In this document: positions 40,118-56,909 of the stretch, one piece after another
How positions within the stretch are numbered: the stretch's first letter is position 1
How the letters are laid out: every line of letters begins with the position of its first letter
From: Acutalibacteraceae bacterium
Lineage (GTDB): Bacteria > Bacillota > Clostridia > Oscillospirales > Acutalibacteraceae
Assembly (NCBI GenBank): GCA_045590395.1
Contig: JAZNQX010000063.1
Location: 5,135 to 69,134, forward strand
Direction: 5' to 3'
Length of the DNA: 64,000 nt
Program-made: the position numbers and the translations under genes
The notes under the pieces: generated by a model
What the model saw: only the letters and a program-made list of their open reading frames with translations
Told to the model about the DNA's origin: nothing
The model's database searches: none

Positions 40118-40136
40118 CTTTTCATACTTAATAAAA

Positions 40137-40400
40137 GCTGTGACGAAGACGGTCAAGAGTTTGTATTTTCAGAGAGCCGGTGGTTGCTGAAAACCGGTAA
40201 TAGAAATTCTTAAAAGACCCATCCCTTCCGAGCCGGAAGTCCGAAAGGTTATCCTAGTAGACGCTTCCCGTGATTGCTGCGTAAAGGCATAGGAATTGTT
40301 TGATTCCAAGAGTGGCGGAAAATTTCCGCAATTTGAGTGGTACCGCGAGTGTATTTTCACACCCGTCTCAAAGTTTCTTTGAGATGGGTGTTATTTTTTT
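40137..40400 (+). promoter_or_regulatory. T-box riboswitch leader 1; tentative specifier AUC (Ile) at 40221-40223
   Basis: K-turn base GCTGTGACGAAG...CTTCCGAGC, an AGAGAG bulge, the distal loop CCGGTGGTTGCTGAAAACCGG, the T-box AATTTGAGTGGTACCGCG (40330-40347), and a terminator at 40360-40390 plus a U-run. Confidence 0.9.
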
Positions 40401-40423
40401 AAAAACAGAAAGGGAGTAATTTT

Positions 40424-42691
40424 ATGAAAACCAATACTGCAAAAGAGCAACTATTAGAGATAGCTCTGCGAATTAGAGAAATGCGCGAGATTATGGGCTG
40501 GTCTATTGCAGAAATGGCTTCTAAAACGGAAGTCAGCGAGGAAAAATATATTTCTTACGAAAGTGCTGAAGCTGACATACCTTTTTCATTTATTCATAAG
40601 TGTGCATTGTGCTTTGATGTAGAGCTTACCGAGCTTTTAGAGGGACACTCTGCTCGTCTTTCAACCTATACTGTAACACGAAAGGGAAAGGGTCAGGCAA
40701 CCGCTAAAGAAGACGGCATCGATATTAAAAACCTTGCCCCTAAGTTCAGAGATAAAATTGCAGAGCCTTACTGGGTAAAATATGAATATTCTGCCGCTCA
40801 GCAAAATAAACCTATACAGCTTTCTACCCACTCGGGACAGGAATTTGACCTTATAATGAGCGGTTCTCTTAAGGTTCAGGTCGGAAATCATATTGAAATT
40901 TTAAACGAGGGCGACAGCATTTATTATAACAGCTCTACTCCTCACGGTATGATAGCTGTAGGCGGAAGTGACTGTGTTTTCTGTGCTGTTGTTCTTCCCG
41001 GCGAAGAAGTAAAGGAAGAAACGGTGCGTCGCAGTATTGTTTCTGCTAAAAATTCAGAAGCACTTGTTTGCGAAAAGTTCCTACAAACTACCGAAAACGA
41101 AAACGGCGAGCTTTTAGATATCAAATTTAAAAATACCGATGAATTCAACTTTGGCTTTGACATTGTTGACGGTATTGCAGATAAATATCCTGAAAAACTT
41201 GCTATGCTTCATATAGACAGAGAAAAGAAGGAAAGACGCTTTACCTTTAAGGATATAAAGCGTGCTTCTAATCAGTGCGCTAACTACTTTACTTCTCTCG
41301 GTATCAAGAGGGGAGATAAAGTAATGCTGGTGCTCAAACGTCATTATCAGTTCTGGTTCTGTATGGTGGCTCTTCACAAAATCGGCGCTGTGGCTATTCC
41401 TGCTACTAATCAGCTTAAAGAGCATGATTTTGAATACCGTTTCAATGCGGCAGGTGTTAACACCCTTGTTTGTACTGCCGACGGTGATACTGCAGAAATT
41501 GCCGAGCGCGCCGCCGCTAATTGTAAGAGCGTTAAAAACCTTGTGCTTGTTAACGGAAAACGCGAGGGTTGGCACGATTTTGACAGCGAATATAAACTGT
41601 TTTCGGGCAAATTTGAAAGAGAAGAAAACGCTTCAGCAGGTGAAGATACCGCCCTTATGTTCTTTACTTCGGGAACTACGGGTAATCCTAAAATGGCGGC
41701 TCATAAGCATACCTACGCTTTAGGCCATTTTGTTACCGCAAAATATTGGCATTGTTGCGAAAGAGACGGTTTACACCTTACTATTTCTGATACAGGTTGG
41801 GGTAAATCACTCTGGGGTAAGCTTTACGGTCAGTGGCTTTGCGAGGGCGCCGTATTTGTATACGACTTTGACCGCTTTGATGCAGATGAGATTCTGCCTA
41901 TGTTTGCAGAGTACAACATCACAACCTTCTGCGCACCTCCTACAATGCTTCGTATGCTTGTAAAGAGTGACCTTTCAAAATATGACCTTTCCTCAATCAA
42001 TCATATGACCACTGCAGGTGAGGCGCTGAATCCTGAAGTATTCCGTCAGTTTGAAGAAGCAACGGGACTTCAGATAATGGAGGGCTTCGGTCAGACCGAA
42101 ACTACCCTTACCATTGCAAACCTTTGCGGAACTACCCCCAAGGTTGGCGCTATGGGTAAGGCTTCTCCTCAGTATGATGTTGATATTGTTGACCTTGACG
42201 GTAATCCTGTTGCCGACGGTGAAGTAGGCGAAATAGTTGTTCATACTAAGGACGGCGTTCCCTGCGGACTGTTTAAAGAGTATTATCTTGACGAAGAAAA
42301 AACAAATGATGCTTGGCACGACGGTATGTACCATACAGGTGATACCGCTTGGCGAGATGAGGACGGATATTTCTGGTATGTAAGCCGTATTGATGATGTA
42401 ATTAAGTCTTCGGGTTACCGTATCGGACCCTTTGAAATTGAAAGCGTTATTATGGAACTTCCTTATGTTCTTGAATGCGGTGTATCTGCTGCACCCGACG
42501 AAGTAAGAGGTCAGGTTGTAAAGGCAAGTATCGTACTTGTTCCCGGAACCGCTCCTACAGAAGAGCTTAAGAAAGAAATCCAAAACTATGTAAAAGAGCA
42601 TACCGCACCTTACAAATATCCGAGAATAGTTGTGTTTAAGGACGAACTTCCCAAAACTATTAGCGGAAAAATTCAGCGAAATAAACTGTAA
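40424..42691 (+). CDS. Fusion protein: N-terminal XRE-type HTH + cupin domain (about aa 1-200) joined to an AMP-forming medium/short-chain acyl-CoA synthetase (ACSM/MACS-like)
   Basis: 755 aa. HTH: LRIREMREIMGWSIAEMASKTEVSEEKYISYE. Cupin: GQEFDLIMSGSLKVQVG...GDSIYYNSSTPHGM. ANL motifs: FFTSGTTGNPKMAAH, SDTGWGK, GFGQTE, YHTGDTAWRDEDGYFWYVSRIDDVIKSSGYRIGPFEIE and SGKIQR. Confidence 0.85.
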   Translation: MKTNTAKEQLLEIALRIREMREIMGWSIAEMASKTEVSEEKYISYESAEADIPFSFIHKCALCFDVELTELLEGHSARLSTYTVTRKGKGQATAKEDGIDIKNLAPKFRDKIAEPYWVKYEYSAAQQNKPIQLSTHSGQEFDLIMSGSLKVQVGNHIEILNEGDSIYYNSSTPHGMIAVGGSDCVFCAVVLPGEEVKEETVRRSIVSAKNSEALVCEKFLQTTENENGELLDIKFKNTDEFNFGFDIVDGIADKYPEKLAMLHIDREKKERRFTFKDIKRASNQCANYFTSLGIKRGDKVMLVLKRHYQFWFCMVALHKIGAVAIPATNQLKEHDFEYRFNAAGVNTLVCTADGDTAEIAERAAANCKSVKNLVLVNGKREGWHDFDSEYKLFSGKFEREENASAGEDTALMFFTSGTTGNPKMAAHKHTYALGHFVTAKYWHCCERDGLHLTISDTGWGKSLWGKLYGQWLCEGAVFVYDFDRFDADEILPMFAEYNITTFCAPPTMLRMLVKSDLSKYDLSSINHMTTAGEALNPEVFRQFEEATGLQIMEGFGQTETTLTIANLCGTTPKVGAMGKASPQYDVDIVDLDGNPVADGEVGEIVVHTKDGVPCGLFKEYYLDEEKTNDAWHDGMYHTGDTAWRDEDGYFWYVSRIDDVIKSSGYRIGPFEIESVIMELPYVLECGVSAAPDEVRGQVVKASIVLVPGTAPTEELKKEIQNYVKEHTAPYKYPRIVVFKDELPKTISGKIQRNKL

Positions 42692-42741: not shown

Positions 42742-42756
42742 AAGACGGATATTAAA

Positions 42757-43019
42757 GGCTTTGACGAAGAGTGCGCTTAATTCTTCCTTGCAGAGAAACG
42801 GTGGTTGGTGAAAACCGTTAGGTTGGAATTTTGTGTTTGTAGCTTCTGAGCCGGGGAGAAGAAAGTATTTAATATCAGTAGAACTCCTCCGTGATTGCTG
42901 CGTTAATGCATAGGAATTGTTAGATTCCAAGAGTGGCGGATTTCCGCAATTTGAGTGGTACCGCGGGTGTGAATATCGGCACTCGTCTCAAAGGCATTAC
43001 TTTGGGACGGGTGTTTTTT
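42757..43019 (+). promoter_or_regulatory. T-box riboswitch leader 2; putative specifier GUA (Val) at 42839-42841
   Basis: GGCTTTGACGAAG...CTTCTGAGCC K-turn helix, AGAGAA bulge, distal loop ACGGTGGTTGGTGAAAACCGT, T-box AATTTGAGTGGTACCGCG (42948-42965), and a terminator at 42980-43013 plus a U-run. Confidence 0.9.
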
Positions 43020-43047
43020 ACGTCCTAACGGAAATGGAGATAAACTT

Positions 43048-45336
43048 ATGGAACAGATTACAGGGCTTGATTTTAAAATCAAGGAAATGGCGGGGCGTAT
43101 CAGAGAGCTTCGCGAAATCGAAGGCTTAACAACGGAACAAATGGCAGAAAAAACCGCTGTTTCGGTGGCTGAGTATATAGAATGTGAAAATGGCAACAGT
43201 GACTTAAACTTTGCCTTTATTTACCGTTGCGCACTTGCTCTTAACGTAAATGTTACCGATATTATTGAGGGTTACAGCCCTACACTTAAATCATATACCG
43301 TTACCCGTGCAGGCTCAGGCCAGAAAATTGCACAGGCTCACGGTATGACCTATTATAACCTTGCTTATGCGTTTAAAAACCGTATTGCCGAGCCTCTTTA
43401 TGTTCGCAGTATATACAGTGAAGAAGCGCAGTCAAGGGATATTGAGCTAACTACCCACGCCGGTCAGGAGCTTGATATAATTATTGAAGGTCAGCTTATG
43501 GTTCAGGTAGGCGAGCATAAGGAAATACTGGGCCCCGGGGACAGCATTTACTATGACAGTGACGTTGCCCACGGTATGATAGCAATAGGCGGTAAGGACT
43601 GTCTTTTCTACGCTATTGTTTTAAACCCCACAGGTGAGCCTATTCCCGAGCTTTTACCCGCTAAAACTATTCTTGAGCCTAAAGCGGTTAAAAAGGATAA
43701 TAAAGAAAGAGTATACCATAAATATATAGATGTTACCGAGAACGATAACGGTACACCTGTTTCTGTAAAGTTTAAAAATACCGATAAATTCAATTTCGGT
43801 TTCGATGTTGTTGATGAAATTGCTCACAAAAGCCCTGAAAAACGTGCAATGCTTCATATATCAAGGGACGGTACAGAGCGTAGCTTTACCTTTAAGGATA
43901 TTGAAAAAGCTTCTAACCAGTGCGCCAACTACTTTAAATCTCTTGGTATTAAAAAGGGCGACCGCGTTATGTTGGTGCTTAAACGCCATTATCAGTTTTG
44001 GTTCTCAATTATTGCACTTAATAAGCTGGGTGCCATAGCTATACCTGCTACAAATCAACTTGTTGAACACGATTTTGATTACCGCTTTAAATCTGCAGGT
44101 GTTAGTACAATTATCTGTACTGCAGATGGTGATACAGCATATCAGGCTGAGAAAGCTGCTGAGAATAATCCTCAGCTTGTAAACAAGCTTATAGTTAATG
44201 GAGCGCGTGAAGGTTGGAGAAGCTTTGACGAGGAATATATCCTTTACAGCACCCACTATAAGCGTACCGAGGATACCGCCTGCGGTGACGATTTAATGCT
44301 TATGTACTTTACTTCGGGTACATCGGGCTATCCCAAAATTGCCGCACACAGCTATAAGTATCCTCTCGGACACTTCCATACTGCAAAATATTGGCACTGT
44401 GTTGACCCTGACGGACTTCACTTTACAATATCTGATACAGGCTGGGCAAAGGCTACCTGGGGCAAAATTTACGGTCAGTGGCTTTGCGAGGCAGGTATAT
44501 TCGTTTATGATTTTGACCGCTTTGATGCTGCAGAAATACTGCCCATGTTTGCAAAGCACAATATAACCACCTTCTGTGCTCCTCCTACAATGCTCCGTAT
44601 GCTTATAAAGCAGGATATAGCACAATATGATTTTTCCTCTGTTAAGCATATGACAACGGCAGGTGAGGCGCTTAATCCCGAGGTTTACCGTCAGTTTGAA
44701 AAAATTACAGGGCTTCAGATTCTCGAGGGCTTCGGCCAGACCGAAAGCACTATGATTATCGGTAATATGACGGGCGCACCCCATAAAATAGGTTCTATGG
44801 GTAAACCTGCACCTATATACGATGTTCATATTGTAGATAGCGATGGCAAAGATGTTCCTGCAGGTGAAACAGGTGAAATCGTTATAAATATTGAAAACGG
44901 TCTTCCTTGCGGACTGGCTACCTGTTACTACGGTGATGAAGAAAAAACAAAAGAAACCTGGCGCGACGGTTATTACCATACAGGAGATACCGCTTGGCGT
45001 GATGAAGACGGCTTCTACTGGTATGTAGGTCGCGTTGACGATGTTATTAAGTCTTCGGGCTACAGAATTGGGCCTTTCGAAATAGAAAGTGTTATTATGG
45101 AGCTTCCCTTCGTTCTTGAGTGCGGTGTATCTGCTGCACCGGATGAAGTAAGAGGTCAGGTTGTAAAGGCAAGTATTGTACTTGTTCCCGGAACCGAGCC
45201 TTCAGAAGAACTAAAGAAACAAATCCAGAAATATGTTAAGGATAAGACTGCACCTTATAAATATCCTCGTATAGTAGTATTTAAAGATAGTCTTCCTAAA
45301 ACTACCAGCGGAAAAATTCAAAGAAATAAGTTATAA
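43048..45336 (+). CDS. Paralogous fusion protein: XRE-type HTH + cupin joined to an AMP-forming acyl-CoA synthetase (ACSM/MACS-like)
   Basis: 762 aa with the same architecture as 40424-42691. The C-terminal roughly 120 aa are nearly identical to the paralogue, while the N-terminal sensor part and the middle of the synthetase are clearly diverged. Confidence 0.85.
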   Translation: MEQITGLDFKIKEMAGRIRELREIEGLTTEQMAEKTAVSVAEYIECENGNSDLNFAFIYRCALALNVNVTDIIEGYSPTLKSYTVTRAGSGQKIAQAHGMTYYNLAYAFKNRIAEPLYVRSIYSEEAQSRDIELTTHAGQELDIIIEGQLMVQVGEHKEILGPGDSIYYDSDVAHGMIAIGGKDCLFYAIVLNPTGEPIPELLPAKTILEPKAVKKDNKERVYHKYIDVTENDNGTPVSVKFKNTDKFNFGFDVVDEIAHKSPEKRAMLHISRDGTERSFTFKDIEKASNQCANYFKSLGIKKGDRVMLVLKRHYQFWFSIIALNKLGAIAIPATNQLVEHDFDYRFKSAGVSTIICTADGDTAYQAEKAAENNPQLVNKLIVNGAREGWRSFDEEYILYSTHYKRTEDTACGDDLMLMYFTSGTSGYPKIAAHSYKYPLGHFHTAKYWHCVDPDGLHFTISDTGWAKATWGKIYGQWLCEAGIFVYDFDRFDAAEILPMFAKHNITTFCAPPTMLRMLIKQDIAQYDFSSVKHMTTAGEALNPEVYRQFEKITGLQILEGFGQTESTMIIGNMTGAPHKIGSMGKPAPIYDVHIVDSDGKDVPAGETGEIVINIENGLPCGLATCYYGDEEKTKETWRDGYYHTGDTAWRDEDGFYWYVGRVDDVIKSSGYRIGPFEIESVIMELPFVLECGVSAAPDEVRGQVVKASIVLVPGTEPSEELKKQIQKYVKDKTAPYKYPRIVVFKDSLPKTTSGKIQRNKL

Positions 45337-45360
45337 TTAAAGGAAAGGCAGGCGAGTATT

Positions 45361-46026
45361 ATGATAGGTAAAAAAAGACTTACGCTTTTTTGCGGACATT
45401 ACGGAAGCGGTAAAACAAATATAGCCGTTAATGTTGCAATTAAGCTTAAAGAGAGCTATAATAATATCGCCCTTGCTGACCTTGACATAGTAAATCCTTA
45501 TTTCAGAACAAAGGACAGCAGTGAAGAGCTTAAAAGCAAGGGTATAAGGCTTATCTGTTCTGAGTATGCAAACTCTAATGTAGATATTCCGGCTCTCCCA
45601 CAGGATGTGTACGCCATTACCGATGATAAAACACTTAAATGTGTACTTGATATCGGCGGTGATGACAGAGGAGCACTGGTTCTGGGCAGAATTTCGGATA
45701 AAATTTCAGAGGAAAATGACTTCGAAATGCTTATGGTTATAAATTCGTTTCGTCCCTTAACCAGAGATACCGAGTCTTTAATAGAGGTTTTTTCTGAAAT
45801 AGAGGCTGCGGCAAAAATTAAATTTACAGGCCTTGTTAACAATTCAAACCTTGGTGAAGAAACCACGGCAGAGGATGTTTTAAGCTCTGTCAACTATGCT
45901 AATGATATATCAAAAGCCACAGGCCTTCCTGTAGTTATGACCTGTGTAAAAGAAGACCTGTATGAGTCTTTAAAGGACAAGATACCTAATCTTTTGGGAC
46001 TTAAACTGCAGAAGAAAATTTTGTAG
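45361..46026 (+). CDS. P-loop NTPase of unknown function (SIMIBI-like; Walker A GHYGSGKT)
   Basis: 221 aa: FCGHYGSGKTNIAVNVA, DLDIVNPYFR and GGDDRG. It sits between the acyl-CoA synthetase and the oxidoreductase genes. Confidence 0.6.
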   Translation: MIGKKRLTLFCGHYGSGKTNIAVNVAIKLKESYNNIALADLDIVNPYFRTKDSSEELKSKGIRLICSEYANSNVDIPALPQDVYAITDDKTLKCVLDIGGDDRGALVLGRISDKISEENDFEMLMVINSFRPLTRDTESLIEVFSEIEAAAKIKFTGLVNNSNLGEETTAEDVLSSVNYANDISKATGLPVVMTCVKEDLYESLKDKIPNLLGLKLQKKIL

Positions 46027-46082
46027 ATTCCACAAATTAAATTTGTGCCTTCGAATATATAATTTGCTAAGGAGTGTTTATT

Positions 46083-46289
46083 TTGGCAAAATTAACATTT
46101 AAAACCGACAACTGTAAGGGTTGCGGCCTTTGCGTAGATGCCTGTCCCAAGCAGGTACTTATTCTCGCAAATGACAAAATCAACAAAAAGGGACATCACC
46201 CTGTAGAAGCGGCAAATATTGACGCTTGTATTGGCTGTGCTTTCTGTGCAACAATGTGTCCTGACTGTATCATTAAGGTAGAAAGGTAG
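46083..46289 (+). CDS. 2-oxoacid:ferredoxin oxidoreductase delta subunit (2x[4Fe-4S] ferredoxin)
   Basis: Two CxxCxxCxxxCP motifs (CKGCGLCVDACP, CIGCAFCATMCP). The TTG at 46083 lies 8 nt after AAGGAG and is preferred over the ORF-track GTG, which overlaps the RBS. Confidence 0.8.
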   Translation: MAKLTFKTDNCKGCGLCVDACPKQVLILANDKINKKGHHPVEAANIDACIGCAFCATMCPDCIIKVER

Positions 46290-47362
46290 TGAGTAAAGTG
46301 GCAGATAAAGTTTTGATGAAGGGTAACGAAGCTATTGCCGAAGCCGCTATTGTTGCAGGCTGTCGTCATTACTTCGGTTATCCTATAACTCCCCAGACAG
46401 AAATTGCCGCTTATATGGCAAAACGTATGCCCAAAATCGGCGGAACCTTCCTTCAGGCTGAAAGTGAAATCGCCGCTATCAATATGGTATACGGCGTTGC
46501 TTCTACCGGTAAGCGTGTTATGACCTCTTCTTCAAGCCCCGGAGTTTCCCTTAAGGGTGAAGGCCTTTCTTATATTGCAGGTGCTGACCTTCCGTCCCTT
46601 ATAGTAAACGTTCAGCGCGGTGGCCCCGGCCTTGGCGGTATTCAGCCCTCTCAGTCTGACTATTTTCAGGCTACAAAGGCAGGCGGACACGGCGACTTTA
46701 AAATGATAGTTCTTGCCCCCGCCTCTGTTCAGGAAATGGCTGACCTTACTGTTAAGGGCTTTGAACTCGCTGACAAATACCGTATGACATCTATGATTCT
46801 TGCCGACGGTACTATGGGACAGATGATGGAGCCTGTTTCTCTCGATTTTGAGGTATCAGAGAAAATAGATAAGCCCTGGGCTACCACAGGAACCAAAATG
46901 GAGCGCGAGCATAATATTGTTAACTCTCTTTTCCTTGTTCCCGAAGAACTTGAAAAATCAAACTTTGAGCGTTTTGAACGCTATAAGTACATAGAGGAAA
47001 ACGAAACCATGTGGGAAGAGTATCTTATGGACGATGCAGAAATTTGTATTGCCGCATTCGGTATTGCCGCCCGTGTTTCTAAAAACGCTATAAATGAGGC
47101 AAGAAAGCAGGGTATTAAGGTTGGTCTTATCCGTCCTATTACTCTCTGGCCTTTCCCCACAAAAGCATTTAAAGAGGCTGCCGAAAAGGTAAGCAGTATT
47201 ATATCTGTTGAGCTTTCTATGGGACAGATGATAGAGGACGTTCGTCTTGCAAGTGAGAGCAAGGTTCCCGTAACCCTTTGCAACCGTGCAGGCGGTATGA
47301 TTCCTTCTCCCGAACAAGTACTCGACGCAATTAAAGAAGCAGCAAAAGGAGGCGCAAAATAA
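46289..47362 (+). CDS. 2-oxoacid:ferredoxin oxidoreductase alpha subunit (VorB/KorA type)
   Basis: 357 aa: LMKGNEAIAEAAIVAGCRHYFGYPITPQTEI is typical of the OFOR alpha N-terminus. Confidence 0.88.
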   Translation: MSKVADKVLMKGNEAIAEAAIVAGCRHYFGYPITPQTEIAAYMAKRMPKIGGTFLQAESEIAAINMVYGVASTGKRVMTSSSSPGVSLKGEGLSYIAGADLPSLIVNVQRGGPGLGGIQPSQSDYFQATKAGGHGDFKMIVLAPASVQEMADLTVKGFELADKYRMTSMILADGTMGQMMEPVSLDFEVSEKIDKPWATTGTKMEREHNIVNSLFLVPEELEKSNFERFERYKYIEENETMWEEYLMDDAEICIAAFGIAARVSKNAINEARKQGIKVGLIRPITLWPFPTKAFKEAAEKVSSIISVELSMGQMIEDVRLASESKVPVTLCNRAGGMIPSPEQVLDAIKEAAKGGAK

Positions 47363-48117
47363 TGGTAGTTTTTGATAAACCGCATGCACTTACCGATGTG
47401 CCTATGCATTATTGCCCCGGCTGTACTCACGGTATTGTTCACCGTCTTGTTGCTGAGGTTATTGACGAACTCGGTATTGAGGGCAAAACCATTGGTATAG
47501 CCCCTGTTGGCTGTTCCGTTATGGCGTATAATTATTTCGGTTGTGATATGATAGAGGCCGCTCATGGACGCGCACCTGCCGTTGCTACAGGTGTTAAGCG
47601 CGCTGACCCTGAAAATCATATAGTATTTACCTATCAGGGTGACGGTGACCTTGCTTCTATCGGTATGGCAGAAACCGTACACAGTGCCGCAAGAAATGAA
47701 AACATAACCGTTATATTCATTAACAATGCTATATACGGTATGACAGGCGGACAGATGGCTCCGACCTCTCTTCCCGGTCAGGTAACACAGACCTCACCCT
47801 ACGGCAGAGATGTAAACCATTGCGGCTATCCCGTTAAGGTTTGTGAAATGCTCTCAAAGCTTGACGGCCCTGAGTATCTCGAAAGAGTCACAGTTAACAA
47901 TGTTAAAAATGTAAAGAACGCTAAGAAGGCAATTAAAAAGGCTTTCCAGAATCAGATAGACGGTAAGGGATTTTCTCTTGTTGAGGTTGTGTCAAGTTGT
48001 CCTACCAACTGGGGTATGACACCAAAACAGGCACTTGAGTGGATTGACGAGAAAATGATTCCTTATTATCCGCTTGGCGTTTATAAAGACAGAAGCGCAG
48101 AAAAGGGGGAAGAATAA
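47362..48117 (+). CDS. 2-oxoacid:ferredoxin oxidoreductase beta subunit (TPP-binding)
   Basis: YCPGCTHG and the TPP motif GDGD...NNAIYGMTGGQ. Confidence 0.88.
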   Translation: MVVFDKPHALTDVPMHYCPGCTHGIVHRLVAEVIDELGIEGKTIGIAPVGCSVMAYNYFGCDMIEAAHGRAPAVATGVKRADPENHIVFTYQGDGDLASIGMAETVHSAARNENITVIFINNAIYGMTGGQMAPTSLPGQVTQTSPYGRDVNHCGYPVKVCEMLSKLDGPEYLERVTVNNVKNVKNAKKAIKKAFQNQIDGKGFSLVEVVSSCPTNWGMTPKQALEWIDEKMIPYYPLGVYKDRSAEKGEE

Positions 48118-48650
48118 TGGCTACTAAACAGTTTTTGTTTTCGGGATTTGGCGGTCAGGGTATTCTTTTCGCCGGTAAGTTTATGGCTTATAAAGGCCTT
48201 ATTGATGATAAGCAGGTAAGCTGGCTTCCGTCATACGGCCCCGAAATGCGCGGCGGTACAGCAAGCTGTAGCGTAATTGTCAGTGACGAGCCCGTGGGTT
48301 CTCCCATAGTATCAAAACCTGATGTGCTTATCGCTATGAATCTTCCTTCTCTTGATAAATATGAGTCTACCGTAAAGAAAGGCGGTATGATTTTCCTTGA
48401 CTCAACCCTTATTGAGCGCAAGGTAGAAAGAGATGACGTTAAGGTTTTCTATATTCCTGCCACAAAGCTGGCAAGTGATAATAATATGCCTACCCTTGCT
48501 AATATGATTATAGTAGGTAAGGTATTAAGTGAACTTAACGATTTCCAAAAAGAAAGCGTTGACGCTGCTCTTTCAAAGGTTATTTCTGCAAAACGTGCAG
48601 ATATGGCTGATATAAACCGCAAGGCTATGCAGATAGGCGCTGAAAACTAA
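48117..48650 (+). CDS. 2-oxoacid:ferredoxin oxidoreductase gamma subunit
   Basis: [14 protein letters not shown]...[10 protein letters not shown]. Confidence 0.85.
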
Positions 48651-48671
48651 TCTTAAGGAGAATTAAGGAAT

Positions 48672-49736
48672 ATGAATATTTCTATTACTAAAACTGCCTG
48701 TCCTAAAGAAAAACCCGACAGCAGTGTACTGGGCTTTGGAAAATATTTTACCGACCATATGTTTATGATGGATTATTCAAGAGATAAGGGTTGGTATAAT
48801 GCAAGAATTGTTCCCTTTGAGAATATTTCTTTGCATCCTGCCTCTACTGTTCTTCATTACGGCAGTGAGATTTTTGAGGGCCTTAAGGCTTATAGACGCA
48901 AAGACGGTAAGGTACAGCTTTTCCGTCCTATAGAGAATATCCGTCGTATGAACAGCTCTGCAGAAAGACTTTGTCTGCCTCAGATTCCTGAAGAGGACGC
49001 TATGCAGGCTCTTAAAACCTTTGTCGCTTTAGAGCAGGACTGGACTCCCTCTGCGGCAGGTACTTCACTTTATCTTCGTCCCTTTATGTTCGGTAATGAC
49101 GAAACCTTAGGTGTTCACGCTGTACATAACGCAACCTTTGTTATTATTGCTTCACCTGTAGGCAGCTACTATAAAGAGGGCATTAACCCGGTTAAAATTA
49201 TGATAGAAGACCAGGATGTTCGTGCTGTGCGCGGAGGTACCGGTTATGCTAAATGTGGCGGTAACTATGCAGCAAGTAACAGAGCAGGTGAGCGCGCTGA
49301 ACAGCAGGGCTATTCACAGGTACTCTGGCTTGATGGTGTTGAGAGAAAGTATATTGAAGAGGTTGGCGCTATGAACGTAATGTTCAAAATCAACGGCGAA
49401 ATCGTTACTCCTATGCTTTCGGGCTCAATTCTCCCCGGTATTACAAGAAAATCCTGCCTTGAGGTGCTAAGAAGCGAGGGCTATAAGGTAAGTGAAAGAC
49501 TGCTTAGCATTGATGAGCTTGAAGAGGCTATGAACAACGGTACTCTTGAAGAGGCTTGGGGTTGCGGAACTGCTGCTGTAGTTTCTCCTATTGGTGAACT
49601 TTGCTACAAGGGTGTAAAGCACCAGGTTAGCGGCGGCAAAATCGGTGAAGTTACTCAGCACCTTTACGATACCCTTACATCTATTCAGTGGGGTAATGCT
49701 GAGGATAAGTTCAACTGGACCGAGCAAATCGACTAA
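48672..49736 (+). CDS. ilvE: Branched-chain amino acid aminotransferase (fold type IV)
   Basis: 354 aa: HYGSEIFEGLKAYR, LYLRPFMFG, GGTGYAKCGGNYA and GITR. Confidence 0.92.
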   Translation: MNISITKTACPKEKPDSSVLGFGKYFTDHMFMMDYSRDKGWYNARIVPFENISLHPASTVLHYGSEIFEGLKAYRRKDGKVQLFRPIENIRRMNSSAERLCLPQIPEEDAMQALKTFVALEQDWTPSAAGTSLYLRPFMFGNDETLGVHAVHNATFVIIASPVGSYYKEGINPVKIMIEDQDVRAVRGGTGYAKCGGNYAASNRAGERAEQQGYSQVLWLDGVERKYIEEVGAMNVMFKINGEIVTPMLSGSILPGITRKSCLEVLRSEGYKVSERLLSIDELEEAMNNGTLEEAWGCGTAAVVSPIGELCYKGVKHQVSGGKIGEVTQHLYDTLTSIQWGNAEDKFNWTEQID

Positions 49737-49750
49737 TTTTAAAAAAGTGG

Positions 49751-49779
49751 TTGACAAACTAAAATTGCGGTGATATAAT
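49751..49779 (+). promoter_or_regulatory. Putative sigma-A promoter of T-box leader 3 (extended -10)
   Basis: TTGACA, 17 nt, (TGa)TATAAT. Confidence 0.65.
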
Positions 49780-49796
49780 TATCTCAAATTTTTAAA

Positions 49797-50049
49797 TGCG
49801 ATGAAGGAATTATTCTTTATATGCGCTTGTTTTCAGAGAGTCGGCGGTTGGTGAGAGCCGATACGGTAGTATAAAGTAAGTCTCGTTCCGGAGCAGAACT
49901 GCTGAAACACAGTAAGCGGTTACGGCGTGCCCCGTTATCATGGCAAAAGGCTTGTTGGAGCCTTACTGAGTGACCGTTTATACGGTAATTAGGGTGGTAC
50001 CGCGAATATTATTCGTCCCTGAAACTATTATGGTTTCAGGGGCTTTTTA
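49797..50049 (+). promoter_or_regulatory. T-box riboswitch leader 3; putative specifier CUC (Leu) at 49882-49884
   Basis: TGCGATGAAGGAA...TTCCGGAGCA K-turn helix, AGAGAG bulge, distal loop TCGGCGGTTGGTGAGAGCCGA, T-box AATTAGGGTGGTACCGCG (49987-50004), and the terminator CCCTGAAAC...GTTTCAGGG plus a U-run. Confidence 0.9.
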
Positions 50050-50079: not shown

Positions 50080-51459
50080 ATGAGAAAAGTAAGAATTGCA
50101 GATACAACTCTTTGCAGTGGTGAAGTAAGCTACAGTTTCAAGGAAAAAATTGAAATTGCAAGACAGCTTGAAAATCTAAAAATTGATATAATAGAGCTTG
50201 GCGCTATTGAAAACGCAAGAACTGATATTTTACTTGTAAAAACTATTTCTTCTTTTGTTAAATCAGGTATCCTCTCTGTTGCAGGCGGTATGACAAAAGA
50301 AAGCATAGACAATGCTGCCTCCGCGCTTTCAAATGCGGTTAATAAAAGGATAAGAATTGAACTTCCCGTGTCCCCCGTGGGTATGGAATATGTTTGTCAT
50401 AAAAAGCCTGATAAAATGCTTCCCTTTATTGAATCTCTTGTTGGTGCCGCAAAAGAAAGGGTAGAGGATGTCGAGTTCTGTGCCATTGATGCTACCCGTG
50501 CTGAAGAAGACTTTCTTAAATCTGCCATCAAAACTGCTGTAAATGCCGGTGCTACATCGGTTTCGGTTTATGACAGCGCCGCAGAAACAATGCTGCCCGA
50601 TGAGTTTGCTGATTTTGCCCGTAAGGTTTGCAAAAAGGCAGATGTAGAGGTTGGCGCATTTTGCGATAACAAAAACGGTATGGCAGTAGCCGATGCCGTA
50701 CTTGCTGTAAGAAATGGTGTTTCTGTTGTTAAGACAGCAGTAGGTACAGGTGCCGTTCCTCTTGAAACCTTTGCAGAAATGATAAATAACTGCGGTAATT
50801 CCTTTGGTATATATGCAGATATAAATTATACAAATTTACACCGTATTATAAAACAGATAAACTGGGTTAAAGAAAACTCAAAGGATGGCAAAAACAGTGT
50901 AAGCAGTGAAAGTATAGATAATACCGTCGCTCTTGACAAAGATTCTGATCGCACCGCTGTTGCTACTGCAGTGCTGAAACTCGGCTATGATTTAAGTGAT
51001 GAGGACAGCGGTAAGGTTTATGATGAATTTGTGCGTGTGGCAGAAAAGAAAAATGTTGGCTATAAAGAGCTTGATGCTATAGTTGCAAGCGTAGCCTTGC
51101 AGGTTCCTGCCACATATAAGCTTATCAATTATGTTGTAAACACAGGTAATATTATTTCTTCAAGCTCTCAGGTTGCCCTTGAAAAAGAAGGCAAAACCTA
51201 TCAGGGTGTTTCTATCGGTAGCGGTCCTATTGATGCGGCTTTCCTTGCTATTGAGCAGATAATAGGAACCCATTTTGAACTGGATGATTTCCAGATTCAG
51301 TCGGTAACAGAAGGTAAAGAGGCTATGGGTAGCGCTCTTGTAAAACTGAGAGCAAACGGAAAGCTTTATTCGGGTAACGGTATTTCCACCGACATTATAG
51401 GCGCAAGTATTCGCGCATATCTTAGTGCTGTAAACAAGATAGTTTACGAGGAGGCATAA
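50080..51459 (+). CDS. 2-isopropylmalate synthase (LeuA/HMGL) homologue with substituted catalytic residues but a retained C-terminal LeuA regulatory domain
   Basis: 459 aa. DTTLCSGE replaces DTTLRDGEQ, AFCDNKNG replaces VHCHNDLG, DSAA replaces DTVG, and GTGAVPLE replaces GIGERAGN. The C-terminal GSGPIDAAFLAIEQI...GKEAMGSALVKL is the LeuA_dimer/R domain. Confidence 0.75.
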   Translation: MRKVRIADTTLCSGEVSYSFKEKIEIARQLENLKIDIIELGAIENARTDILLVKTISSFVKSGILSVAGGMTKESIDNAASALSNAVNKRIRIELPVSPVGMEYVCHKKPDKMLPFIESLVGAAKERVEDVEFCAIDATRAEEDFLKSAIKTAVNAGATSVSVYDSAAETMLPDEFADFARKVCKKADVEVGAFCDNKNGMAVADAVLAVRNGVSVVKTAVGTGAVPLETFAEMINNCGNSFGIYADINYTNLHRIIKQINWVKENSKDGKNSVSSESIDNTVALDKDSDRTAVATAVLKLGYDLSDEDSGKVYDEFVRVAEKKNVGYKELDAIVASVALQVPATYKLINYVVNTGNIISSSSQVALEKEGKTYQGVSIGSGPIDAAFLAIEQIIGTHFELDDFQIQSVTEGKEAMGSALVKLRANGKLYSGNGISTDIIGASIRAYLSAVNKIVYEEA

Positions 51460-51461
51460 AA

Positions 51462-53966
51462 ATGAAATTCTCTTTTTCTACAAAAGGATGGCATAATATA
51501 TCCTTTGAAGAATTTTGTGAAATAGCAAAAGACCTTAAGTTTGAGGGAATTGAACTTCATAATATAAATAATCCTCTTTTTACTGATAAGGACGGCGCTT
51601 TTCACGAGCATACAGCGGCAGGAACAATAAGAAAGCTTTACGAAAAGAAGCTTTCTTTACCCTGCATTGATACTATTTGCAATATAGCAGATAATGATGA
51701 ATTTGATAAAAGCGTGGATGAAATTCTTGCCTGTATTGATATTGCAAAGCGCCTTAAAATACCCTTTATAAGACTTCACGCCGGTATGGCAGAGGATATC
51801 GAAAAGGCTACAGCCTGCGTGGTTTCTATTATTGAAAAAACCATATCCGATGCCGAGGAAAACGGGGTTACATTGCTTCTTGAAACCTCGGGTATCTTCT
51901 CTAATACCGAGATTCTCAGAGATACTCTTGAACTCTTTGCAAGTGATAGTCTTGCGGCTTCGCTTGATATGTATTCTGCATATTTCATAGGTAAAGAAGA
52001 TGCTGAACAGATTATTAAAAATCTGGGTGCTTATGTAAAACACGTTCATGTAAGGGACGCGCAAAAAGTTAACGGTAAATTGGAAAATTGTCTTATCGGT
52101 GAGGGCGAAATGCCTATTAACGATATGATGCTGGCTCTTCGCAGTGTAAATTATGACGGATATTTCTCACTGATATGGGACCCCTCATGGTGTGAGGAGC
52201 TTGACGATATGGAGATTATATTCTCTCATTTTGTCAACTTTATGAAGCAGTATGGTGATATTTCTAAAAACGAAACTACACTTTACTACAACAAAACTCA
52301 TACGGGAAAATTTGTGTGGAAAAAGGATTTACTTATTGACCTTACCTTCCCACAGGTGCTTGACAGAATGGCAGAGGAATTTCCTGACCAGTATGCATTT
52401 AAGTACACCACCCTTGATTATACCCGTACCTACAGCCAGTTCAGAGATGACGTTGATACCTTTGCCAGAGCCCTTGTTTCTATGGGCGTAAAGGCAGGTA
52501 CCAAGGTAGCTGTATGGGCTTCGAATGTGCCTCAGTGGTATATTTCCTTCTGGGCGGCTACAAAAATAGGTGCCGTACTTGTTACGGTTAACACCGCTTA
52601 TAAAATTCACGAGGCTGAGTATCTGCTTAAGCAGTCGGATACCCATACCCTTATTATGACTCAGGGAAGCAAGGATACAAACTACGGCGAAATTATAGCC
52701 CGTCTTTGTCCTGAGCTTGAAACTATGAAGTCAGGAAGCGCTCTTCACAGCAAAAAACTTCCTTTCCTTCGTAATGTAATTACCGTAGGCTTTAAACAGA
52801 AGGGCTGTATGACCTGGAATGACGCCTTGGCACGTTCTATTGATACCCCTGTGGAAGAGGTTTACAGAATGGCGGCGGCTGTTGATAAGGACGACGTTTG
52901 TAATATGCAGTATACTTCGGGTACTACAGGATTTCCTAAGGGTGTTATGCTTACTCACTATAATGTTGTAAATAACGGAAAGTATATCGGCGACCATATG
53001 GATCTTTCTACCGCAGACAGAATGATGATACAGGTGCCTATGTTCCATTGCTTTGGTATGGTACTTTCTATGACCGCGTCTATGACTCATGGTACAACTA
53101 TGTATCCTATGCCGTATTTTTCACCAAAGCCTTCTCTCGCTTGTGTTCATAATGACCATTTTCCCGCCTTTATCGGCGTACCTACCATGTTTATTGCTAT
53201 GATGCAGCACCCTGATTTTGAAAAAACCGACTTTTCTTATATGCGTGTGGGCATTATGGCGGGCTCTAACTGTCCTGCCGACCTTATGAAACAGGCAACA
53301 GAGGTTATGAATATGAAGGAAATTGTATCTGTTTACGGTCAGACCGAAGCGTCACCCGGTTGCACTATGAGTAGCTGGTATGATTCTCTTGAGGTTAGAA
53401 CCGAAACCGTAGGCAGCGCATTTGCTAATGTTGAGTGTAAGATAATCGACCCCGAAACAGGGGAGGACTGCCCTGACGGAGTTAACGGTGAGTTTGTTGC
53501 CCGTGGCTATAATATAATGAAGGGCTATTATAAAATGCCTAAGGCTACAGCGGCGGCTATTGATAAGGACGGTTGGCTTCACACAGGCGACCTAGCTTGC
53601 AGACGCCCTGACGGAAACTATCTTATAACAGGTCGTCTTAAGGATATGATTATCAGAGGCGGAGAAAACATTTATCCTAAGGAAATTGAGGAATTTATAT
53701 TCACTAATCCTAAGGTAAGTGATGTTCAGGTTATAGGTGTTCCCGATAAGCAGTACGGCGAAGAAATTATGGCCTGTATTATTCTTAAAGAGGGCGAAAC
53801 TATGACCGAAGAAGAAATAAAGGGTTATATTTCCGCCAATATGGCGCGTCATAAGGTTCCTCGCTATATTGATTTTGTAGATAAGTTCCCAATGAATGCG
53901 GCAGGTAAAATACTTAAGTACAAAATGAGAGAGGAAGCCGCCAAAAAACTGGGACTTGATGAGTAA
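51462..53966 (+). CDS. Fusion protein: xylose-isomerase-like TIM barrel (sugar phosphate isomerase/epimerase family, about aa 1-270) joined to an AMP-dependent acyl-CoA synthetase/ligase
   Basis: 834 aa. The N-terminus has FEGIELHN...LLLET...HVHVRD TIM-barrel features. The C-terminus has YTSGTTGFPKGVMLTH, VYGQTEASP, TGDLACRRPDGNYLITGRLKDMIIRGGENIYPKEIE and AGKILK. Confidence 0.8.
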   Translation: MKFSFSTKGWHNISFEEFCEIAKDLKFEGIELHNINNPLFTDKDGAFHEHTAAGTIRKLYEKKLSLPCIDTICNIADNDEFDKSVDEILACIDIAKRLKIPFIRLHAGMAEDIEKATACVVSIIEKTISDAEENGVTLLLETSGIFSNTEILRDTLELFASDSLAASLDMYSAYFIGKEDAEQIIKNLGAYVKHVHVRDAQKVNGKLENCLIGEGEMPINDMMLALRSVNYDGYFSLIWDPSWCEELDDMEIIFSHFVNFMKQYGDISKNETTLYYNKTHTGKFVWKKDLLIDLTFPQVLDRMAEEFPDQYAFKYTTLDYTRTYSQFRDDVDTFARALVSMGVKAGTKVAVWASNVPQWYISFWAATKIGAVLVTVNTAYKIHEAEYLLKQSDTHTLIMTQGSKDTNYGEIIARLCPELETMKSGSALHSKKLPFLRNVITVGFKQKGCMTWNDALARSIDTPVEEVYRMAAAVDKDDVCNMQYTSGTTGFPKGVMLTHYNVVNNGKYIGDHMDLSTADRMMIQVPMFHCFGMVLSMTASMTHGTTMYPMPYFSPKPSLACVHNDHFPAFIGVPTMFIAMMQHPDFEKTDFSYMRVGIMAGSNCPADLMKQATEVMNMKEIVSVYGQTEASPGCTMSSWYDSLEVRTETVGSAFANVECKIIDPETGEDCPDGVNGEFVARGYNIMKGYYKMPKATAAAIDKDGWLHTGDLACRRPDGNYLITGRLKDMIIRGGENIYPKEIEEFIFTNPKVSDVQVIGVPDKQYGEEIMACIILKEGETMTEEEIKGYISANMARHKVPRYIDFVDKFPMNAAGKILKYKMREEAAKKLGLDE

Positions 53967-53969
53967 TCG

Positions 53970-54785
53970 GTGATAAAAATGGTTCAAAACAAATTTTATA
54001 CAGTAGATTCTCACTGTCATATCTATCCCGAAAAAATTGCTCAAAAGGCTGTAGAGGGTACTGATAATTTTTATAGTACAACTGCGGCAGGTCTGGGTAC
54101 GGTTTCTGACCTTTTGCATATGGGAAGCGAGGCAGGGGTTGACCACTTTATTGTTCAGTCTGTGGCAACAACGCCAAAGCAGGTAAAAAGCATTAACGAG
54201 TTTATTTCCAAAACCGTTTCAGAGCATAATGGTAAATTAACCGGTCTTGGCACACTTCATCCCGAAAGTGAAGACATAAAGGGTGATGTTGAGCATCTTT
54301 TAGAGTTGGGCCTTAAAGGCGTTAAGCTTCACCCCGACATACAGCGCTTCGAAAGCGACTGTGAAAGGTGTATGCAAATCTACGAGCTGTGTGAAAAGAA
54401 TAATCTTGTATTACTAATGCACACAGGTGATTACAGGTACGACTATTCAAACCCTAACAGAATAATTCCAATACTGGAAACCTTTAAAAAGCTGACCTTT
54501 ATCGGCGCACACCTTGCAGGTTGGTCGGTGTGGCAAGAAGCCTATGAAAAGCTGTCATATTATGATAATCTTTATGTAGACTGTTCATCTTGCTTTGGCT
54601 TTACCGAAAGGGAGGAAGTATACGCCCTTATGAAGAAATACGGGGCTGACAGAATACTTTTCGGTACCGATTATCCTATGTGGTCACCGAAAAGCGAAAT
54701 GGAAACATTTTTATCCCTTGATTTCACCGATGAAGAAAAAGCAAAAATCTTAGGTCTTAATGCTAAAAAAATATTTAATTTATAG
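53970..54785 (+). CDS. Amidohydrolase-2 (metal-dependent TIM-barrel hydrolase/decarboxylase) family protein
   Basis: DSHCHIYPE near the N-terminus, then ...KLHPD..., ...MHTGD... and FGTDYPMW. The start may instead be the ATG at 53979 (RBS GGTGA). Confidence 0.75.
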   Translation: MIKMVQNKFYTVDSHCHIYPEKIAQKAVEGTDNFYSTTAAGLGTVSDLLHMGSEAGVDHFIVQSVATTPKQVKSINEFISKTVSEHNGKLTGLGTLHPESEDIKGDVEHLLELGLKGVKLHPDIQRFESDCERCMQIYELCEKNNLVLLMHTGDYRYDYSNPNRIIPILETFKKLTFIGAHLAGWSVWQEAYEKLSYYDNLYVDCSSCFGFTEREEVYALMKKYGADRILFGTDYPMWSPKSEMETFLSLDFTDEEKAKILGLNAKKIFNL

Positions 54786-54790
54786 GGCAG

Positions 54791-54834
54791 AAAAGCCGCG
54801 AAGTAAAAAAACTTCGCGGCTTTTTTATTTTTTT
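54791..54834 (+). terminator. Strong intrinsic terminator closing the Leu-T-box operon
   Basis: AAAAGCCGCGAAGT-AAAAAA-ACTTCGCGGCTTTT followed by TTATTTTTTT. Confidence 0.85.
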
Positions 54835-54961: not shown

Positions 54962-55387
54962 ATGTTATACGGTGGATATCAACATAATATTGACAAAAAG
55001 GGCAGGGTTTTCATTCCGTCCAAGCTTCGTGAAGAACTCGGCGCGGAGTTTATTATCTGCCGCGGTATATCTGGTAAATGCTGTCTTTGTGTTTATTCTA
55101 TGAGTGAGTGGAATAAGCTTGTTGAAAATATTGGCACCTTGCCCAGTACTAAATCAAGCGTTGTTAAGCGTTTTCTTTACGACGGCGCTTTCAATATAGA
55201 GTGTGATGCACAGGGCAGAATTCTTATTCCACCAACACTTCGAGAATATGCCAAGCTTGATGGTGAAGCCCATATTATCGGTATGGATACTAATCTTGAA
55301 ATATGGAACACTGCTCTCTGGCAGGAAGAAAACGAAAAATATACTCCCGAATCTGTTGCTTCTATTATGGAAGAACTAAACTTCTAA
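54962..55387 (+). CDS. mraZ: Transcriptional regulator MraZ
   Basis: 141 aa: IDKKGRVFIPSKLREEL and a second DAQGRILIPPTLREYA (two SpoVT/AbrB-like repeats). Confidence 0.93.
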   Translation: MLYGGYQHNIDKKGRVFIPSKLREELGAEFIICRGISGKCCLCVYSMSEWNKLVENIGTLPSTKSSVVKRFLYDGAFNIECDAQGRILIPPTLREYAKLDGEAHIIGMDTNLEIWNTALWQEENEKYTPESVASIMEELNF

Positions 55388-55397
55388 GGAGTATAAA

Positions 55398-56318: not shown

Positions 56319-56330
56319 AGGACGAGGCAA

Positions 56331-56798
56331 ATGAATAATCTCAAGTATTATAACGATTCTCTGGCATACGATTTTCAGATGTTTATGCCTAAAGAGAAGC
56401 CGCAGAGTGTGCCTGATGACAATATAATAAAAATGCCTCGCCGTAAAAGCAAGACGAGGCAAAAGGCTGTTGCAGCGCGTTTTTCAGCCAGTGCGTTTTC
56501 TATTGTTGCAACAGTTGTTATTGTGGGTGCTTTATGCACAAACATATTCTTAAGAATTCAGGTTAACGAGCTTAACAGCACCATAAACAAGGCAAAATCA
56601 GAACTTGCTACAAAGCAGAGCGAGAGCGTTGCTTTGCAGATGGAATATGAAAACCGTATTTCCTATGTAAACCTTGAAGCCGAGGCAACCGCCCTTGGTA
56701 TGCGCAAACTGGACAAGAGCCAGGTGGTTTATGTACGTGTAAATGATAAGAGTATGGCAAAAACTGGTGACGGAAAAATTCTTTTGGCAAATGAGTAA
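56331..56798 (+). CDS. ftsL: Cell division protein FtsL-like (single TM + coiled coil)
   Basis: The position between rsmH and the PBP gene, a single TM (FSIVATVVIVGALCTNIFL) and a coiled coil. Confidence 0.65.
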   Translation: MNNLKYYNDSLAYDFQMFMPKEKPQSVPDDNIIKMPRRKSKTRQKAVAARFSASAFSIVATVVIVGALCTNIFLRIQVNELNSTINKAKSELATKQSESVALQMEYENRISYVNLEAEATALGMRKLDKSQVVYVRVNDKSMAKTGDGKILLANE

Positions 56799-56909
56799 TT
56801 TGGCAAGGAATAGTAGAAGAATACAAATAATATAAATAAGGATACGGGAGTTGAAGTTTTCGGCTCTCGTTTTCAAGCATTTTAAAAGTGAGAAAGTGAG
56901 GATAATAAG

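Follow-up and report, generated by a model that had tools for sequence, protein, structure and literature searches.

A predicted catalytically inactive LeuA paralogue paired with a leucine-regulated acyl-CoA ligase

The open reading frame 50080..51459 (+) encodes a paralogue of 2-isopropylmalate synthase (LeuA), the first leucine-biosynthesis enzyme, that is catalytically dead by LeuA criteria, keeps the regulatory domain that binds leucine in LeuA, and is almost always paired with an acyl-CoA ligase under a Leu T-box in gut and rumen bacteria. The window analysed is a 64,000 nucleotide stretch of an Acutalibacteraceae bacterium (contig JAZNQX010000063.1, positions 5,135 to 69,134). The protein may best be seen as a non-catalytic, leucine-sensing accessory subunit of the adjacent ligase, a putative isovalerate-CoA ligase, with a probability of about 0.5, although the support for leucine binding and for a complex comes from sequence and genomic context rather than biochemistry. 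No description of this family, of the gene pair, or of the set of three T-boxes found here was identified in the literature searched. The features of the region are presented in Table 1.

Table 1. Features of the LeuA-like operon and the neighbouring branched-chain ligase modules, in window coordinates
Position	Strand	Feature	Details
49751..49779	+	Sigma-70-type promoter of the Leu operon	TTGACA-17-TATAAT, 12 of 12 matches, TG extension
49792..50023	+	T-box leader	Rfam RF00230, 133.3 bits against a gathering score of 93; specifier CUC (Leu) at 49882-49884, with a purine after it; register confirmed by alignment of 49 orthologous leaders
50015..50048	+	T-box terminator hairpin plus T-run	13 pairs; hairpin at 50015-50043; overlaps the 3' side of the T-box antiterminator region
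50080..50847	+	LeuA-like protein aa 1-256	Degenerate DRE-TIM barrel
50848..51099	+	LeuA-like protein aa 257-340	Variable linker that replaces the deleted accessory subdomain I, followed by the retained subdomain II helices
51100..51459	+	LeuA-like protein aa 341-459 plus stop codon	LeuA allosteric/dimerisation domain, nearly invariant in the family; keeps the GxGPIDA and GxGISTDI helix-start motifs; the GGAGG ribosome-binding site for the next gene lies in its last codons
51462..52316	+	Partner protein aa 1-285	Xylose-isomerase-type TIM barrel (AP_endonuc_2); putative metal quartet reads E-D-H-I in this copy, the last Glu being lost
52317..53966	+	Partner protein aa 286-834 plus stop codon	AMP-forming acyl-CoA ligase, very highly conserved (mean column identity 0.83); proposed isovalerate-CoA ligase
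53970..54785	+	Amidohydro_2 family protein, third gene of the operon	Facultative member, present after the ligase in about half of the related loci
54789..54826	+	Strong intrinsic terminator that ends the operon	16 pairs plus T-run
40131..42691	+	Ile T-box followed by an HTH-cupin-acyl-CoA synthetase	Specifier AUC; MbcS-like
42752..49736	+	Val T-box followed by an HTH-cupin-acyl-CoA synthetase, a CbiA-like P-loop protein, ferredoxin, 2-oxoacid:ferredoxin oxidoreductase alpha/beta/gamma, and the branched-chain aminotransferase IlvE	Specifier GUA

The 459 aa protein aligns from end to end with LeuA. Pfam identifies an HMGL-like domain (PF00682) at aa 4-256 (E 2e-33) and a LeuA_dimer domain (PF08502) at aa 329-454 (E 4.9e-31). 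The substitutions listed in an earlier note, which had proposed a candidate pseudoenzyme or sensor, are all confirmed, with DTTLCSGEV at aa 8-16, YDSAA at 164-168, FCDNK at 194-198 and GTGAVPLE at 222-229. These were placed opposite the LeuA motifs by three independent alignments: phmmer against the LeuA structures 3ewb and 3rmj, MAFFT with canonical LeuA sequences, and a profile-profile alignment with hhalign (Prob 100, E 1.6e-92, 466 columns), in which the regulatory domain aligns without gaps. The barrel of the AlphaFold model (pLDDT 89.7) superposes on LeuA catalytic domains at 1.7 A, with Foldseek hits to 3rmj and 3ewb at this rmsd and further hits to 1sr9 and 3fig. No catalytic residues at shifted positions were seen in any of these comparisons.

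There are further losses that the earlier note did not list. Four residues are deleted after 'GE', the catalytic Glu of EFSAED is Ile ('EFCAID'), the 'GIGER' loop is deleted, and a deletion of about 31 columns removes accessory subdomain I ('HESGIHQDGVLK..YEI'), which in LeuA includes the catalytic His (HxSGIHQDG). The LeuA positions that probably correspond to R80, D81, E218, H285 and H287 of the M. tuberculosis enzyme (MtIPMS) are Cys12, Ser13, Ile136, Phe194 and Asp196 in this protein. Of 106 diverse representatives of the family, none retains His at either of the two HxH positions, the metal-binding Asp is kept in 8, the substrate-binding Arg in 34 and the catalytic Glu in 25. GIGER is deleted in >=100 of 106 and HQDG-YE in 106 of 106. 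Substitutions of R80 and E218 abolish the activity of MtIPMS (PMC10464499), and subdomain I is required for catalysis (PMC9860122). The protein is about 45-55 residues shorter than LeuA and scores 277.6 bits against a cut-off of 532 for the best LeuA equivalog model, NF002086, and 250.7 against 598.7 for TIGR00973. All of the CimA, NifV and homocitrate synthase models are also far below their cut-offs. Despite the full-length homology, and one database source in which a fragment is named '2-isopropylmalate synthase', it is very unlikely that this is a still active 2-isopropylmalate or citramalate synthase with unconventional residues.

A decaying pseudogene is also very unlikely. The protein belongs to a large unnamed family, with relatives in at least 591 species-level genomes and >100 clusters at 50% identity, and the open reading frame is intact in hundreds of genomes. 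Over 27 pairs the dN/dS is 0.07 for the barrel and 0.03 for the C-terminal half, indicating purifying selection on the whole protein.

Conservation in the family is inverted relative to LeuA, in that the barrel drifts while the regulatory domain is nearly invariant. The median identity to the query is 63% for the regulatory domain and 36% for the barrel. Of the columns that are invariant in canonical LeuA, 15 of 21 are kept in the regulatory domain, against 18 of 78 in the barrel. The claim in the earlier note that the regulatory domain has been kept is supported and strengthened. Both helix N-terminus motifs are retained almost invariantly, and in LeuA these hold the effector carboxylate (PMC11057210). 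At the first of these the family reads G-x-G-P-I-D-A like LeuA, not G-D-G-G-Y-D-A as in the Leptospira citramalate synthase CimA, an active enzyme that senses isoleucine. An isolated PF08502 domain has been shown to work as an amino-acid recognition element (PMC13381585). The suggestion that the protein binds leucine rests only on this retention of motifs. The regulatory domain alone gives only a weak sequence hit to 3f6g (E 0.55).

The barrel, however, is retained at full length under strong purifying selection and keeps polar residues on the old active-site face (D8, E39, E103, Y104, K109, D137, R140 and D165), which is more than a pure sensor strictly needs. It is possible, although unlikely, that this is a repurposed enzyme, as the earlier note also suggested. 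The remodelled barrel would have acquired a new, metal-independent activity or substrate site, acting on the substrate or product of the ligase, for example an acyl-CoA or 2-oxoacid, in a still unknown step of a leucine-related pathway. Family-specific invariant residues F20, Y104 and K109, together with the retained D8, E103, D137, R140 and D165, lie near the top of the barrel. On the other hand, all of the strand-end residues that make up the DRE-TIM active site are lost, many of these positions are variable within the family, and the acetyl-CoA and catalytic accessory subdomain is deleted. Only four family-specific invariant residues lie in the barrel (F20, P96, Y104 and K109), none of which is at the former metal site or at the ends of strands 7 or 8, and the strongest constraint is on the regulatory domain. 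A new activity is not excluded.

In all 77 genome loci that have downstream DNA, the gene is followed on the same strand, typically after 2-5 nt, by a xylose-isomerase-type TIM barrel fused to an acyl-CoA ligase. This includes the most distant member, at 32% identity. Of 74 informative metagenome loci, 54 have the LeuA-like gene directly upstream of the TIM-ligase, mostly with gaps of 2-5 nt. In the window the gap is 2 nt. A regulatory subunit of the downstream ligase, as proposed in the earlier note, is supported by genomic evidence only, in which no fusion proteins were seen. It is improbable that the protein is instead a free-standing sensor of leucine or a related effector acting on another target, such as the ferredoxin oxidoreductase, IlvE, a transporter or gene expression. 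Although the regulatory domain is intact and the oxidoreductase and IlvE are often nearby, these are in variable order, on the other strand or absent.

It is also doubtful, but possible, that the protein is a structural or assembly partner without leucine sensing, which scaffolds or stabilises the ligase or channels acyl-CoA to the ferredoxin oxidoreductase. PF08502 is also the dimerisation domain of LeuA, the gene pairing is tight, and the extreme conservation of both the ligase and the C-terminal domain would be expected for interacting surfaces. Against this are the retention of the effector-site motifs (GxGPIDA and GxGxSxD), which match canonical LeuA, the leucine specificity of the system at the RNA level, and the ligases that do without the protein. 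All 49 of the T-boxes that could be read upstream of the gene have CUC or CUG specifiers, although 32 of 81 genome loci have no exact T-box core within 450 nt upstream.

A sister clade of the ligase lacks the LeuA-like gene. There are 20 such TIM-ligase loci, and the 9 of these with a readable T-box have Leu specifiers, suggesting that the LeuA-like protein is accessory rather than catalytic, although these organisms might encode a LeuA-like gene elsewhere in the genome. The TIM metal quartet is intact in 19 of 19 of these solo ligases, but in only 53 of 131 partnered ligases, with >=17 patterns of erosion (naive Fisher p = 2e-7). This links the LeuA-like protein to the TIM domain, although docking there is only inferred. 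The erosion could equally mean that the LeuA-like protein took over a catalytic job. In the unlikely event that a site built around residues such as F20, E103, Y104 and K109, with the retained Asp and Arg residues, has replaced the function of the TIM domain, the operon would encode an undescribed enzymatic route to a leucine precursor, not merely isovalerate activation plus a sensor. The TIM domain has only remote similarity to ketose 3-epimerases and hydroxypyruvate isomerase, far below the cut-offs, and a metal-less barrel is an unlikely substitute for a metal-dependent epimerase- or isomerase-type site.

The module sits with ligases resembling MbcS, the branched short-chain acyl-CoA synthetase of Staphylococcus aureus, under Ile and Val T-boxes, and with a 2-oxoacid:ferredoxin oxidoreductase and IlvE. 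This fits branched-chain amino acid synthesis from branched short-chain acids. The two MbcS-like ligases score 428 bits, below the cut-off of 850. MbcS activates 2-methylbutyrate and isobutyrate but hardly isovalerate (PMC10026030), and leucine synthesis by carboxylation of isovalerate is known in rumen microbes (PMC7356843). The ligase paired with the LeuA-like protein belongs to another ANL subfamily (PRK12583-like) and, unlike MbcS, carries an N-terminal TIM barrel. Its substrate is unassigned, the best NCBIfam model being below its cut-off (644 against 832) and the nearest structures being unspecific ANL ligases.

In the proposed pathway, the ligase would perform the ATP-consuming committed step, converting isovalerate to isovaleryl-CoA, which the oxidoreductase would carboxylate reductively to 2-oxoisocaproate, and IlvE would transaminate this to leucine. 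There would be two tiers of control. The Leu T-box turns the operon on when tRNA-Leu is uncharged, and the LeuA-like protein, as a homodimer binding leucine at the interface of its regulatory domains, may then throttle the ligase when leucine is plentiful. This would transplant LeuA-type feedback inhibition onto a different first enzyme.

If this is correct, the allosteric sensor of an enzyme has outlived the enzyme, a logic perhaps best known from HisZ, a histidyl-tRNA synthetase paralogue that lost catalysis and probably serves as the histidine-sensing subunit of short-form ATP phosphoribosyltransferase, HisG. HisZ appears to be required for HisG activity, while here the complex is only inferred, the partner is of an unrelated enzyme class, and the partner exists without it in a sister clade. 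Methylthioalkylmalate synthase (MAM), the top Foldseek hit (6e1j), is also a LeuA-derived paralogue recruited to a new role, yet it is the mirror image, having kept catalysis and lost the regulatory domain. The module, with three amino-acid-specific T-boxes driving three acyl-CoA ligases, would also give a gene-level handle on a pathway described physiologically for rumen and gut anaerobes, making the branched-acid requirement of fibre-degrading Clostridia directly testable, and the protein would offer a natural leucine-binding scaffold for biosensor design. Members of the family are annotated as 'hypothetical', as 'regulatory domain-containing' or, in one source, as 2-isopropylmalate synthase. 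Taking them for LeuA would falsely credit these organisms with the first step of the canonical leucine pathway in metabolic reconstructions.

In one locus the pair heads a leuC-leuD-leuA-leuB operon that contains a true LeuA (691 bits against the cut-off of 532). At least here, the LeuA-like protein is not a replacement for LeuA. No other locus has canonical leu genes within 10 kb. Partly degenerate LeuA relatives of ~500 aa were also found, but these keep GIGER and have other neighbours, either an AHAS small subunit or leuC, and are not part of this family.

The ORF at 50080-51459 on the forward strand is real and encodes a protein of 459 aa. Pfam identified an HMGL-like DRE-TIM barrel at aa 4-256 (E 2e-33) and the LeuA allosteric/dimerisation domain at aa 329-454 (E 4.9e-31). 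The best curated LeuA model reaches only 278 bits against a cut-off of 532, and all of the citramalate and homocitrate synthase models are much lower. HMMER alignments to solved LeuA catalytic domains (3ewb and 3rmj) place the altered motifs of this protein opposite the canonical ones. A family profile of 46 sequences was built and compared with a canonical LeuA profile, the alignment that the earlier note had named as the refutation test. This gave one end-to-end alignment (Prob 100, E 1.6e-92, 466 columns), in which the regulatory domain aligns without gaps.

Correspondence of motifs between canonical LeuA and the LeuA-like protein in the profile-profile alignment
Canonical LeuA	LeuA-like protein
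DTTLRDGEQTPG	DTTLCSGEV, then four gap positions
EFSAEDAYR	EFCAIDATR
PDTVG	YDSAA
SVHCHDDLG	GAFCDNKNG
NGIGERAGNAALEE	one gap position, G, four gap positions, TGAVPLET
HESGIHQDGVLK..YEI (about 31 columns)	deleted

An AlphaFold2 model (pLDDT 89.7) has a barrel that superposes on 3rmj and 3ewb at 1.7 A, and it matches full-length M. tuberculosis LeuA. The loss of metal-binding and catalytic signature residues from a LeuA paralogue that keeps its regulatory domain, as claimed in the earlier note, is therefore confirmed, and the loss is larger than was reported there. The catalytic Glu is also gone, as is the whole of accessory subdomain I, which is needed for catalysis and allosteric coupling (PMC9860122; PMC10464499).

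A word-indexed search returned at least 120 clusters at 64-97% identity. All of these are 457-462 aa, come from Oscillospiraceae, Ruminococcaceae and Acutalibacteraceae MAGs, and are named 'hypothetical' or 'alpha-isopropylmalate synthase regulatory domain-containing protein'. An exhaustive search of representatives at 50% identity identified more than 100 further full-length clusters of 450-490 aa, down to 32% identity, with canonical LeuAs of about 500 aa appearing only below these. Of 106 representatives, none retains His at either HxH position, 8 retain the metal Asp, 34 retain the Arg (with Lys in 26 and Cys in 18), and 25 retain the catalytic Glu. GIGER is deleted in at least 100 and the HQDG-YE element is deleted in all 106. 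At least 591 species-level genomes encode a relative. Most are gut or rumen Clostridia, with Synergistaceae and Eggerthellaceae MAGs as well.

Close orthologue pairs give a dN/dS of 0.07 for the barrel, 0.16 for the linker, and 0.03 for the C-terminal half. Conservation is inverted relative to an enzyme. Median identity to the query is 36% in the barrel, about as distant as canonical LeuA barrels (29-34%), but 63% in the regulatory domain. Of the columns that are invariant in canonical LeuA, 18 of 78 in the barrel are kept by at least 80% of the family, against 15 of 21 in the regulatory domain. Family-specific invariant residues are few, these being F20, P96, Y104, and K109 in the barrel and D309, Q341, R424, and I454 in the C-terminal half, and none sits at the former metal site. 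It is almost certain that this is a functional protein and that it is not a LeuA-type synthase; an active synthase or a pseudogene is effectively excluded. A new activity of the remodelled barrel is unlikely but not excluded, as the barrel is strongly selected and keeps a polar cluster.

The LeuA-like gene lies in an operon under its own promoter and T-box leader. A GGAGG ribosome-binding site is present inside the last codons of the gene, with a 2-nt gap to the next gene, which encodes an 834-aa fusion of a xylose-isomerase-type TIM barrel and an AMP-forming acyl-CoA ligase. Directly upstream of the operon are an Ile T-box with an HTH-cupin-acyl-CoA synthetase, then a Val T-box (GUA) with a second such synthetase, a CbiA-like P-loop protein, a ferredoxin, the three subunits of a 2-oxoacid:ferredoxin oxidoreductase, and IlvE.

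Coordinates of the LeuA-like operon and neighbouring features in the window
Feature	Position	Strand	Remarks
Leucyl-tRNA synthetase (leuS)	37001-39409		Immediately upstream of the branched-chain module
tRNA-Lys(UUU)	39511-39586		Follows leuS
Ile T-box	40131-40373		Specifier AUC
Acyl-CoA synthetase under Ile T-box	40424-42691		MbcS-like, N-terminal HTH_19 plus Cupin_2
Acyl-CoA synthetase under Val T-box	43048-45336		MbcS-like, N-terminal HTH_19 plus Cupin_2
CbiA/ParA-like P-loop protein	45361-46026		221 aa
Sigma-70 promoter	49751-49779		Perfect
Leu T-box leader	49792-50023		Specifier CUC at 49882-49884
T-box terminator hairpin	50015-50043		
LeuA-like gene	50080-51459	+	459 aa
TIM barrel of the ligase fusion	51462-52316		Putative metal quartet at aa 141, 168, 196 and 238
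Amidohydro_2 / TatD-like protein	53970-54785		Third gene of the operon
Terminator	54789-54826		Strong
Division and cell-wall cluster	54962-59171		mraZ, rsmH, ftsL-like, PBP

No T-box was detected in front of leuS at the gathering threshold. In the Ile T-box the base after the specifier is C in the window, whereas the Leu and Val leaders here have the usual purine; orthologous Ile leaders have A, C, or G at that position. The division and cell-wall cluster starts right after the operon, although at locus L001 a Y1 transposase is inserted at this junction. The downstream boundary of the module therefore differs between genomes.

In all 77 of the genome loci that have downstream DNA, the LeuA-like gene is followed on the same strand by the TIM-ligase, including in the most distant member at 32% identity. 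The ligase domain is 70-93% identical even where the LeuA-like protein is 45-50% identical. The amidohydrolase, a metal hydrolase with no specific family assignment, is facultative, following the ligase in about half of the loci and occasionally preceding the pair (locus L048). The oxidoreductase, IlvE, and MbcS-like ligase genes are usually nearby, but in different orders and on different strands, and in several lineages the Leu T-box heads the whole cluster. The P-loop protein always precedes the ferredoxin and the oxidoreductase genes in related loci and may be a maturation or assembly factor for the oxidoreductase.

Of 81 genome loci, 49 have an exact T-box core upstream. All 49 have a leucine specifier, CUC in 41 and CUG in 8. 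The two MbcS-like ligase types (428 bits for the copies in the window, below the 850 cut-off) carry AUC and GUA specifiers across genomes. One exception to this otherwise clean match is at locus L040, where an MbcS-like ligase that is 66% identical to the Ile type has a CUC (Leu) specifier instead of AUC. The HTH_19 plus Cupin_2 module of these ligases normally forms a small-molecule-responsive transcription factor and the fusion is conserved in many genomes, thus each branched-acid ligase seems to have its own appended ligand-binding module. In an Eggerthellaceae MAG (locus L078, 10001-18546), the LeuA-like gene and the TIM-ligase head a leuC-leuD-leuA-leuB operon whose LeuA passes the curated cut-off (691 against 532), with no ferredoxin oxidoreductase within 10 kb. 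The pseudo-LeuA therefore coexists with a real LeuA and is tied to leucine without any T-box.

Metagenome contigs were scanned with the ligase fusion as the query. Of 74 informative loci, 54 have the LeuA-like gene directly upstream, with gaps mostly of 2-5 nt. The other 20 have a TIM-ligase (ligase domain 69-76% identical) with unrelated genes upstream and no LeuA-like gene within 4 kb. Many of this sister clade come from bioreactor, digester, and gut metagenomes. Nine of the 20 have a recognisable T-box and all nine carry Leu specifiers. This suggests that the ligase is the core leucine-starvation function and that the LeuA-like protein is an accessory.

The putative metal quartet of the TIM domain (E-D-H-E) is intact in 19 of 19 solo ligases, but in only 53 of 131 partnered ligases. 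The remainder show at least 17 different substitution patterns, with the copy in the window reading E-D-H-I. A naive Fisher test, uncorrected for phylogeny, gives p = 2e-7. The presence of the LeuA-like partner thus goes with relaxed constraint on the TIM site, which ties the two together functionally, although not by any mechanism that can be explained here. It is likely that the LeuA-like protein is a functional partner of the TIM-ligase. The decay of the TIM site could, however, reflect functional replacement, which is compatible with a new activity of the barrel.

The module fits the synthesis of branched-chain amino acids from branched short-chain acids. The acid would be activated to the acyl-CoA, carboxylated reductively by the ferredoxin oxidoreductase, and transaminated by IlvE. 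Leucine synthesis by carboxylation of isovalerate followed by amination is cited for rumen microbes (PMC7356843). It is inferred from T-box induction and the AMP-forming ligases that the direction is anabolic. MbcS-type ligases take 2-methylbutyrate and isobutyrate but hardly isovalerate (PMC10026030), which explains why leucine would need a separate ligase. That isovalerate is the substrate of the TIM-ligase is about as likely as not.

It is proposed that the LeuA-like protein is the leucine sensor of that ligase. Leucine would bind at the dimer interface of the regulatory domains, as in LeuA, where the effector carboxylate sits between two helix N-termini (PMC11057210). Both of those motifs are retained here, and an isolated PF08502 domain can act as a sensor (PMC13381585). 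Binding, which is somewhat more likely than not, would transmit inhibition to the committed, ATP-consuming step. The probability of this model as a whole is about 0.5. It is doubtful that the protein is instead a scaffold that does not sense leucine, and a sensor for another target is less likely still.

LeuA-derived paralogues are already known, as are pseudoenzymes used as regulators. The closest analogy in logic to the proposed sensor may be HisZ with HisG. However, no curated model covers this family, and no description of the family, of the gene pair, or of the T-box trio was found in full-text searches. If the main model is confirmed, it would also define the genes and control logic of a pathway that, as far as these searches show, has been described only physiologically.

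Other LeuA paralogues of about 500 aa are only partly degenerate. The proteins P0265 (locus L083) and P0268 have Cys in place of the LRDGEQ Arg and an altered HxH, while P0259 (locus L084) lacks HQDG. These are found in other contexts, P0259 next to an AHAS small subunit and P0265 next to leuC. It is possible that there is a wider spectrum of LeuA-derived proteins in Clostridia.
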